Positions 36,680 to 38,025 of a DNA stretch of 64,000 bases are shown here, piece after piece. A program made the translations under genes and the position numbers. The stretch covers positions 210,366,001 through 210,430,000 of the forward strand of contig OZ024741.1 of NCBI GenBank assembly GCA_964016885.1. The letters are read 5' to 3'. The notes under the pieces were generated by a model, which was given only the letters and a program-made list of their open reading frames with translations, ran no database searches and was not told the origin of the DNA. This DNA is from Eledone cirrhosa. Taxonomy: Eukaryota. Every line of letters begins with the position of its first letter. Position 1 is the stretch's first letter.

Positions 36680-38025
36680 ATATTTATTAAAATAACAGAT
36701 TAAAGTTTAAGCAAAGAATCGCTGCTTTCACCCTTAACGGGATCTTCTGAAACTAACAAAGTCAATCTGTAAACGCAGAAGTGGATATTTCAAAAAACGT
36801 TGCAACCGGAGGAAGACAGGAAGACGATACCTAGGTTCTTTTAGACTCCAGATATAAGCTGAAAGTGACGTCATTGTCTGTATCAGGAGTTTTAGGTATG
36901 TTTTCCTGCTTGGTACGGGTATGTTCTTTGTAGAAATATTCAGATGTTGTTTCTGCATGATGAATATAAGTCAATAGAGTGCTCAACCGAGGGAGCCAAA
37001 TAGTAATAATAATAAATTTGAAGACTAAAATCCAAAGAGGGCTCGATAAGGATAAATATATATGAAATATATAAGAACCGTAGAGCAAATATTTATTAAA
37101 ATAACAGATTAAAGTTTAAGCAAAGAATCGCTGCTATCACCCTTAACGGGATCTTCTGAAACTAACAAAGTCAATCTGTAAACGCAGAAGTGAATATTTC
37201 AAAAAACGTTGCAACTGGAGGAAGACAGGAAGACGATACTTTGGTTCTTTTAGACTCCAGATATAAGCTGAAAGTGCCGTCATTTTCTGTATCAGGAGTT
37301 TTAGGTATGTTTTCCTGCTTGGTACGGGTATGTTCTTTGTAGAAATATTCAGATGTTGTTTTGCATGATGAATATAAGTCAATAGAGTGCTCAACCGAGG
37401 GAGCCAAAAAATAAAAATAATAAATTTGAAGACTAAAATCCAAAGAGGGCTCGATAAGGATAAATATATATGAAATATATAAGAACCCTAGAGCAAATAT
37501 TTATTAAAATAACATTAAAATTTAAGCAAAGAATCGCTGCTTTCACCCTTAACGGGATCTTCTGAAACTAACAAAGTCAATCTGTAAACGCAGAAGTGGA
37601 TATTTAAAAAAGCGTTGCAACCGGAGGAAGACGATACTTTGGTTCTTTTAGACTCCAGATATAAGCTGAAAGTGACGTCATTTTCTGTATCAGGAGTGTT
37701 AGGTATGTTTTCCTGCTTGGTATGGGTATGTTCTTTGTAGAAATATTCAGATGTTGTTTCTGCATGATGAATATAAGTCAATAGAGTGCTCAACCTCCTG
37801 TCTTCCTCCGGTTGCAATGTTTTGTGAAATATTCACTTCTGCGTTTACAGATTGACTTTGTTAGTTTCAGACGATCTCGTTAAGGGTGAAAGCAGAGATT
37901 CTTTGCTTAAACTTTAATCTGTTATTTTAATAAATATTTGCCCTACAGTTCTTATATATTTGATATATATTTATCCTTATCGAGCCCTCTTTGGATTTTA
38001 GTCTTCAAATTTATTATTATTACTA
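36680..38025 (-). mobile_element. Tandem array of a ~409-bp non-autonomous mini-PLE (2.7 units on minus) plus an inverted partial unit (37796-38025)
   Basis: Unit starts at 36682, 37091 and 37499. Each unit has a hammerhead-like motif (36705-36753, 37114-37162, 37520-37568; plus-strand 37864-37912) and a fused PLE ORF remnant. Confidence 0.88.

Follow-up and report, generated by a model that had tools for sequence, protein, structure and literature searches.

At 36680-38026 of the window, by which we mean the whole 64,000-nt stretch of Eledone cirrhosa DNA that was analysed (C2:210366001-210430000), lies a tandem array of short units derived from a Penelope-like element (PLE), with (TA)n terminating both of its outer ends (Table 1). 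The left arm, on the minus strand, comprises ~2.75 head-to-tail units starting at 36680, 37089 and 37497, which bears out the periods of 409 and 408 read in an earlier note on this DNA; the third unit is partial and carries a 10-nt deletion. An inverted arm (37796-38026) follows. Its tail, previously taken for the start of the next monomer, is actually the normal extension of the family, 89 nt between insertion ends at -131 and -42 (numbered from the parent ATG), which is seen at parent insertions everywhere.

Each monomer consists of parent positions -289 to +85 and 38 nt of the parent endonuclease region (~+1862 to +1899). The earlier note had traced this second half to an endonuclease gene at ~7865, but that family shares ~45% protein identity, whereas in the first unit all 38 bases are identical to the parent's own gene (copy L052). 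The junction from the fragment to the 3' UTR (junction 2) has 2 nt of microhomology, and that on the ORF start side (junction 1) an imperfect 3-5 nt. Neither has the GT/AG of splice sites, and back-splicing was rejected as their source. The fused peptide proposed earlier is present and in frame; its first half, then likened to the N-terminus of Hydra-type PLEs, matches the start of the parent ORF with 98-99% DNA identity, which supports descent from an autonomous PLE. The array itself is non-autonomous, as had been supposed, its coding capacity being just the 74-codon relic, with no RT or nuclease core.

Pairwise, the units differ at 11/408, 8/299 and 9/298 aligned bases (2.7-3.0%) and carry private indels too, and the array is therefore not an assembly duplication. 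The 5'-most piece (-30 to +85) and the 3'-most piece (-289 to -131) do not overlap, and positions -41 to -31 are missing from the inverted arm as well. Contigs from four sequencing runs at the locus, and one at a parent terminus, had loose ends at -131 and -42; among the matches listed, such contigs neither bridged nor excluded the junctions. Tandem Repeats Finder, run on the whole window, did not report the array among the best 150 of its 171 rows. Another inverted-arm insertion of ~320 bp, between (TA)n runs at 38122-38445 and ~38880-39212, adjoins the array and is unrelated to it in sequence.

Table 1 Features of the array, separate parent termini in the window, and look-alike loci elsewhere in the genome (parent positions numbered from the ATG)
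Feature	Position	Strand	Remarks
Left-flank target microsatellite	36544..36687		(CT)n(TA)n
Left arm	36680..37795	minus	~2.75 head-to-tail units; 3' end at -131 against (TA)n; 5' end at -30
3'-most piece	36680..36838	minus	-289 to -131
Hammerhead-like motif, type I, family state	36704..36754	minus	core CAGAAGA...GAAA; predicted cut between 36709 and 36708
Fused ORF relic	36734..36958	minus	74 codons: 27-28 residues of parent N-terminus, 12-13 of endonuclease, then read-through into 3' UTR
Endonuclease fragment, copy 1	36837..36874	minus	38 nt, parent ORF ~+1862 to +1899
Full parent-terminus piece	36875..37247	minus	-289 to +85; unit with GATA core change
Hammerhead-like motif, unit 2	37113..37163	minus	GATA for GAAA
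Endonuclease fragment, copy 2	37246..37283	minus	
Full parent-terminus piece	37284..37643	minus	10-, 2- and 1-nt deletions; ORF relic frameshifted
Hammerhead-like motif	37519..37569	minus	one helix I pair now G-U
Endonuclease fragment, copy 3	37644..37681	minus	
5'-most piece	37681..37795	minus	-30 to +85
Inverted arm	37796..38026	plus	-272 to -42, ends in (TA)n; without junction
Hammerhead-like motif, damaged	37863..37913	plus	in inverted arm
Right-flank target microsatellite	38024..38121		(TA)n
Separate parent terminus	10836..11005	minus	-300 to -131, older subfamily; no junction; outside mini-element
Separate parent terminus	47653..47802	minus	~-188 to -42; no junction; outside mini-element
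L139, 407-nt array	C2:273375860-273383330		10 copies of +81 to -327 junction, period ~407; 5' piece from -22
Sister array	C3:102.41 Mb		2 junction copies; 5' piece from -10
L141, 46-nt array	C27:5647247-5648203		21 copies; neighbours share variants
L142, 35-nt array	C3:354881644-354882366		~19 copies of -197 to -163, then normal -131 end and (TA)n
L143	C4:303589440-303590315		private +86 to -311 junction common to both inverted arms, as is one private change; one arm begins at -202

The parent element family

A DNA search of the octopus's own genome (3.0-Gb assembly; 80 matches from the best 40 of 1,835 candidates) recovered the autonomous parent, a Hydra-type PLE of ~3.25 kb with a 710-aa RT + GIY-YIG ORF and a 1-kb 3' UTR. 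Many loci among those matches are 98-99% identical to the leader and ORF start of the array. The exact start motif was found in 18 of the 20 parent loci fetched, several of which have open frames of 665-719 aa. Copy L047 encodes RWR at residue 37, DKT at 115, CxCx5C at 565, CxxC at 663 and CxH at 691, and the marks reported for the Hydra clade include RWK-like, DKT, CxCx5C, CxxC and CxH motifs (PMC8557442). Judged by these motifs and by its insertion into (TA)n, the parent is assigned to the Hydra-clade type, from which it differs in the 3.25-kb unit, the 1-kb 3' UTR and a non-canonical hammerhead core, the clade being canonical throughout in the available part of that source. No Pfam family scored above threshold on the 710-aa protein.

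The hammerhead-like 27-mer of the parent has 20,863 exact matches in the genome. Family behaviour was sampled in 40 regions around the first listed of these places on contig C1. Each of the 40 loci had at least one arm that ended within 2-3 nt of -131 or -42, in nearly every case followed by (TA)n, and arms stood head to head at ~23 of them by our reading of the table. An ORF-start-to-UTR junction occurred at one locus, and a repeated junction at none. Many parent insertions are just 73 or 163 nt long.

These two ends match the two internal RT start sites of an anole PLE, which in vitro adds a tail and has both strands nicked and extended (PMC11167929). In the octopus parent the two sites precede the ATG by 131 and 42 nt, which gives a tail of 89 nt, compared with 111-118 nt inside the ORF in known PLEs, as far as the available descriptions go. 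The array shares with PLE partial tandem and inverted insertions its head-to-head arms, 3' ends at the RT start sites of the family, and a microsatellite target; the likeness to the partial tandems described in the accessible parts of PMC8557442 and PMC11167929 extends to two RT start sites with an optional tail, priming on both strands and an AT-rich target. It is unlike them in showing the same complex junction three times. The array is a variant of known PLE tandem structures that works like the birth stage of a retrozyme while lacking a canonical core and a multi-locus family.

Other Hydra-like PLE families occupy the window. A second, at 7023-9253 and 23125-26332, has a canonical hammerhead core with a long helix II, at 9128, 26227 and 23250 (minus), and a third, at 17658, 18612-20451, 20910 and 22814, shares 44% protein identity with the parent in the RT region. 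Local duplications at 1-1199 and 4794-7001 (80-98% identity) include a 29-bp minisatellite.

Junction uniqueness and look-alike loci

Searched through the genome with one mismatch allowed, junction 1 gave four matches, three of them at the array; the fourth, judged on its matched letters alone, reads as parent with one base lost. All three matches to junction 2, with two mismatches allowed, were at the array. A multi-locus family of the 409-bp monomer was thus not found in this one assembly. The earlier note had proposed a retrozyme family and named uniqueness to this locus as its refutation; both junctions occur solely here. The six best full-length matches elsewhere were rejected as sibling monomers on account of their different junctions. 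Parent-related sequence does lie at 10860 and 47655, where the earlier note had seen dispersed pieces, but these are ordinary parent termini without either junction.

Some junction sites do recur independently, and +82 to -328 was found at two loci with different sublineage markers. The double junction of the array is no such hot spot, being absent elsewhere among >20,000 termini; with the divergence and private indels of the units, this makes it highly improbable that the array is an assembly artefact or the outcome of three independent jumps to the same sites.

Related structures were nonetheless found. A gap-pattern search gave 14 matches, 2 at the array and 12 elsewhere, whose donors lie between +82 and +96 and whose acceptors between -310 and -328; under a uniform model such donor clustering is unlikely (p ~1.5e-4 for 10 independent junctions). 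A search for motif pairs, confined to spacings of 394-424 nt, found 30 matches, distributed over 19 loci. Five of these are arrays (the present one, those with 10 and 2 junctions, and those with 46-nt and 35-nt units), and the other 14 are single junctions or separate insertions. The 10-junction array (C2) ends at -131, with an inverted arm ending at -42, and is interrupted by a 3.4-kb insertion; variants common to non-adjacent units mark a later block duplication. Both sister arrays (C2:273.38 Mb and C3:102.41 Mb) have their own junctions and no overlap between 5' and 3' pieces. The 35-nt array looks like reiterative copying.

A set of 120 matches with 370-bp pairs was rejected as a dispersed mini family. 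The 30 rows fetched (L193-L222) go back to a single partial-tandem insertion, with a +71 to -299 junction, that a larger repeat carries as a passenger; 22 of them have the same upstream flank. Between unchanged flanks, 2 of 21 copies of this passenger gained a unit.

The hammerhead-like motif and the insertion ends

As the earlier note had claimed, each unit carries one hammerhead-like motif, on the minus strand, with GATA for GAAA in unit 2 and a non-canonical core throughout. Helices I, II and III can be drawn in all three units (type I topology), with 5, 3 and 4 bp in the family state. Constrained to the hammerhead, the stretch folds at -4.8 kcal/mol; with 4 nt more and no constraint, its best fold reaches -8.8. 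By what we take to be the standard hammerhead numbering, U4 is A and the G10.1-C11.1 pair is missing in every unit, so that no two consecutive units hold a canonical core. On sequence evidence this variant core is the normal state of the whole parent family and not decay at the array, because the 27-nt motif stretch recurs exactly 20,863 times. G10.1-C11.1 is reported as highly conserved in PLE motifs (PMC4209133). Most hammerhead core changes cost most activity, and U4C is strongly reduced yet tolerated in a viroid (PMC3088659); an effect of U4A was found neither in the available part of that paper nor in a literature search. The motif of the array is degenerate, inherited from the parent, and probably weak or inactive. 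An Rfam search at the array matched no hammerhead family up to E 10, which is uninformative because it missed a canonical minimal motif at 35878 too, and the whole-window scan had no hammerhead among the best 150 of its 179 rows.

Arm 5' ends were counted base by base: the predicted cut (-159) has 132, a control site (-186) has 350 and -205 has 1,017; of the examples fetched, 28/30, 24/30 and 20/20, respectively, were true ends. There is thus no 5'-end excess at -159, and cut RNA has left no footprint in insertion ends, in a count to which seamless circles are invisible and for which a single control site is thin. A search for 3' ends at the predicted cut, run without a control, gave 30 matches, mostly small indels and ~8 chimeric. 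An extra G was present at 12/20 ends at -205 and at 12/60 at the other two sites (p 0.0015). We take this G to be a copied cap, by presumed analogy with L1 biology. Position -205 (window 36754), which coincides with the first base of helix I, is therefore likely the capped transcript start, and the hammerhead-like motif would then likely fill the first 51 nt of the RNA. A splice acceptor was not supported as the cause of the -205 pile-up: 19/20 ends abut an inverted arm, and none an upstream exon.

These observations bear on whether the array is a true retrozyme, in which a mini source locus with two hammerheads, absent from the assembly, would yield a self-cleaved 409-nt monomer, then a circle, then rolling-circle reverse transcription, or in which a lost multimeric source was transcribed. 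The motif does have full type I topology, at the terminal position where other PLE families of the window carry canonical cores, and weak motifs can work, since the anole PLE hammerhead cleaves only with protein (PMC11167929). A covalent circle would also be the simplest account of exact repetition. At L143 one private junction is found on both inverted arms, one of which starts at the transcript start, a pattern suggestive of mini transcripts mobilised in trans. The 46-nt units of L141 span -205 to -160, beginning at the inferred transcript start and stopping at the predicted cut, and correspond to the predicted 5' product; their junction, however, lies within 3-nt microhomology, and slippage explains them equally. 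Against a retrozyme stand the lack of any source or sibling for either junction, the U4A change and the missing G10.1-C11.1 pair, core changes usually costing most activity (PMC3088659), and the 5' ends, which are not in excess at the cut. Moreover, the terminal motif of the third Hydra-like family keeps CUGAGGA and GAAA without helix II, and loss of helix II from a kept core suggests relaxed catalysis. In the anole, insertion was unaffected by hammerhead mutants (PMC11167929). On balance we regard a true retrozyme as unlikely.

Further hammerhead-core motifs lie near microsatellite-flanked ends at 35878, 47147, 28255, 39620, 39814, 54358, 55218 and 23044-23072, and are probably termini of other PLE families. 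An inverted PLE junction may account for a sub-threshold Rfam match to mir-750 at 39675-39759 (43 bits; gathering threshold 60), which two inverted hammerhead-like motifs flank.

Origin of the array

Our preferred explanation, to which we give an even chance, is a single unspread insertion whose multimer was written in one target-primed reverse transcription along a closed path, without ribozyme cleavage. From the pieces, the parent, the two insertion ends, the (TA)n target and the uniqueness of the junctions we infer the following nicking, priming and jumps. The parent enzyme would nick (TA)n on both strands and prime at -131 for the left arm and at -42 for the right. On the left arm it would copy to -289, jump by microhomology to the endonuclease region, copy 38 nt, jump to +85 and run back through its own start. 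The path would then be fixed, with the first-round cDNA serving as a splint or by ligation into a circle, and repeated nearly three times before stopping at -30. The exact threefold repeat of a two-jump path requires this hypothetical splint or ligation, and, with one assembly only, a source locus could be lost or unassembled. Of the multimer- or circle-templated origin put forward in the earlier note, the multimer-templated part probably stands.

The timing is constrained by the units themselves. The two full units share one change, present in 0/143 other contexts, and otherwise carry 4 and ~7 private substitutions in a star-like pattern; because of this single shared change among many private ones, their separation dates to about the time of insertion. 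Unequal exchange could not have expanded a one-junction precursor that had the present ends, there being no overlap between its pieces. The -30 end looks like a natural stop, since six single-junction loci have their 5' ends close by (-34 to -44).

A DNA-level origin would instead start from a one-junction partial tandem, made by ordinary PLE template switching, whose overlapping direct repeats grew in number by unequal exchange shortly after insertion; a later deletion at the palindromic head-to-head junction would have trimmed the 5' piece to -30. Unequal expansion did occur at the 2/21 passenger loci and inside the 10-copy array, and local amplification by unequal crossover is favoured, in the part available, by a July 2026 preprint (10.64898/2026.07.22.740005). 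Microhomology at both junctions indicates that template switching first made them. The inverted arm does not carry the private change shared by the full units, which fits a mutation that preceded duplication at the DNA level, or the involvement of a second RNA. A further point against the preferred path is a polymorphic T that one full unit has in common with the inverted arm but that its neighbours lack. However, this origin calls for an extra deletion at the present array and at each of its two sisters; junctions elsewhere have remained near-perfect palindromes, and the units share almost no divergence. The passenger expansions retained their overlap, and of the six single-junction loci whose overlap is 35 nt or more (L060, L061, L062, L109, the left arm of L143, and L175), none has expanded. 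Across nine loci, overlap went with lack of expansion at Fisher p 0.012, a post hoc value for a small set of loci from searches tuned to 400-nt units. Taken together, these points leave the DNA-level origin rather doubtful.

A panhandle between the 3' UTR (-314 to -225) and the ORF start, predicted in single copies with duplex z of -2.6 to -4.1 in 6/6, would set the jump sites of the preferred path side by side. We did not rely on it, since other stretches pair equally or better, the global z is 0.46, and a consensus fold of 11 copies, two of them 5'-truncated, kept only a helix on the ATG and showed no covariation. The fold stability of the monomer is ordinary (z -1.05 linear, -1.14 circular).

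The array resembles metazoan non-LTR retrozymes, as far as these are described in the available parts of PMC7229834 and 10.64898/2026.07.22.740005, in being a low-GC, ~400-bp, non-coding tandem of PLE pseudo-LTR origin with a type I hammerhead-like motif per unit; its GC of 35% and length of 409/408 bp fall in their 150-450 bp, low-GC, head-to-tail range. It is unlike them in its single locus, its non-canonical core, and the ORF start and endonuclease fragment that it retains. Nothing at the locus points to function or spread, and with no sign of further movement the array looks like a retrozyme at birth that is not spreading. That animal retrozymes derive from PLE pseudo-LTRs is already reported in the preprint, in which 1/9 tested dimers cleaved and whose supplements may hold ORF-bearing examples (10.64898/2026.07.22.740005); what is new here is a fossil of the birth step, likely made without ribozyme cleavage.

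Ribozyme-cut circles and unequal crossover have both been proposed for the origin of PLE tandems and animal retrozymes, with little direct evidence, and circles in particular as templates for more-than-unit PLE copies (PMC4209133, PMC7229834). In a literature search that mostly lay outside subscription papers, neither a tandem PLE mini-unit whose ORF-derived junctions recur nor ribozyme-independent circling by a PLE RT turned up. The question can be put to the test in silico and in vitro in a family that offers >20,000 termini, RT start and stop sites that can be mapped, intact ORFs and several independent private-junction arrays.

In telomerase repeat addition, an RT repeatedly copies one template region by means of a fixed jump. 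The same principle gives a tandem array in DRT2, for which concatemer synthesis from linear RNA by a fixed jump has been shown (PMC12039810). Both systems are programmed and use a dedicated RNA, whereas the array here would be a by-product made from time to time, with a junction of its own for each event, and is not a member of either. More generally, and only as a tentative possibility, the telomerase-related PLE RT may circle looped linear RNA, lock its jump path once a first round is complete and write concatemers of 409-, 407-, 46- and 35-nt units into the genome, so that retrozyme-shaped arrays and PLE-derived satellites would be born repeatedly during reverse transcription, without ribozyme cleavage or a source locus. 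If so, the array at 36680 would be the clearest fossil, in which a 38-nt piece from 1.8 kb away marks each round.
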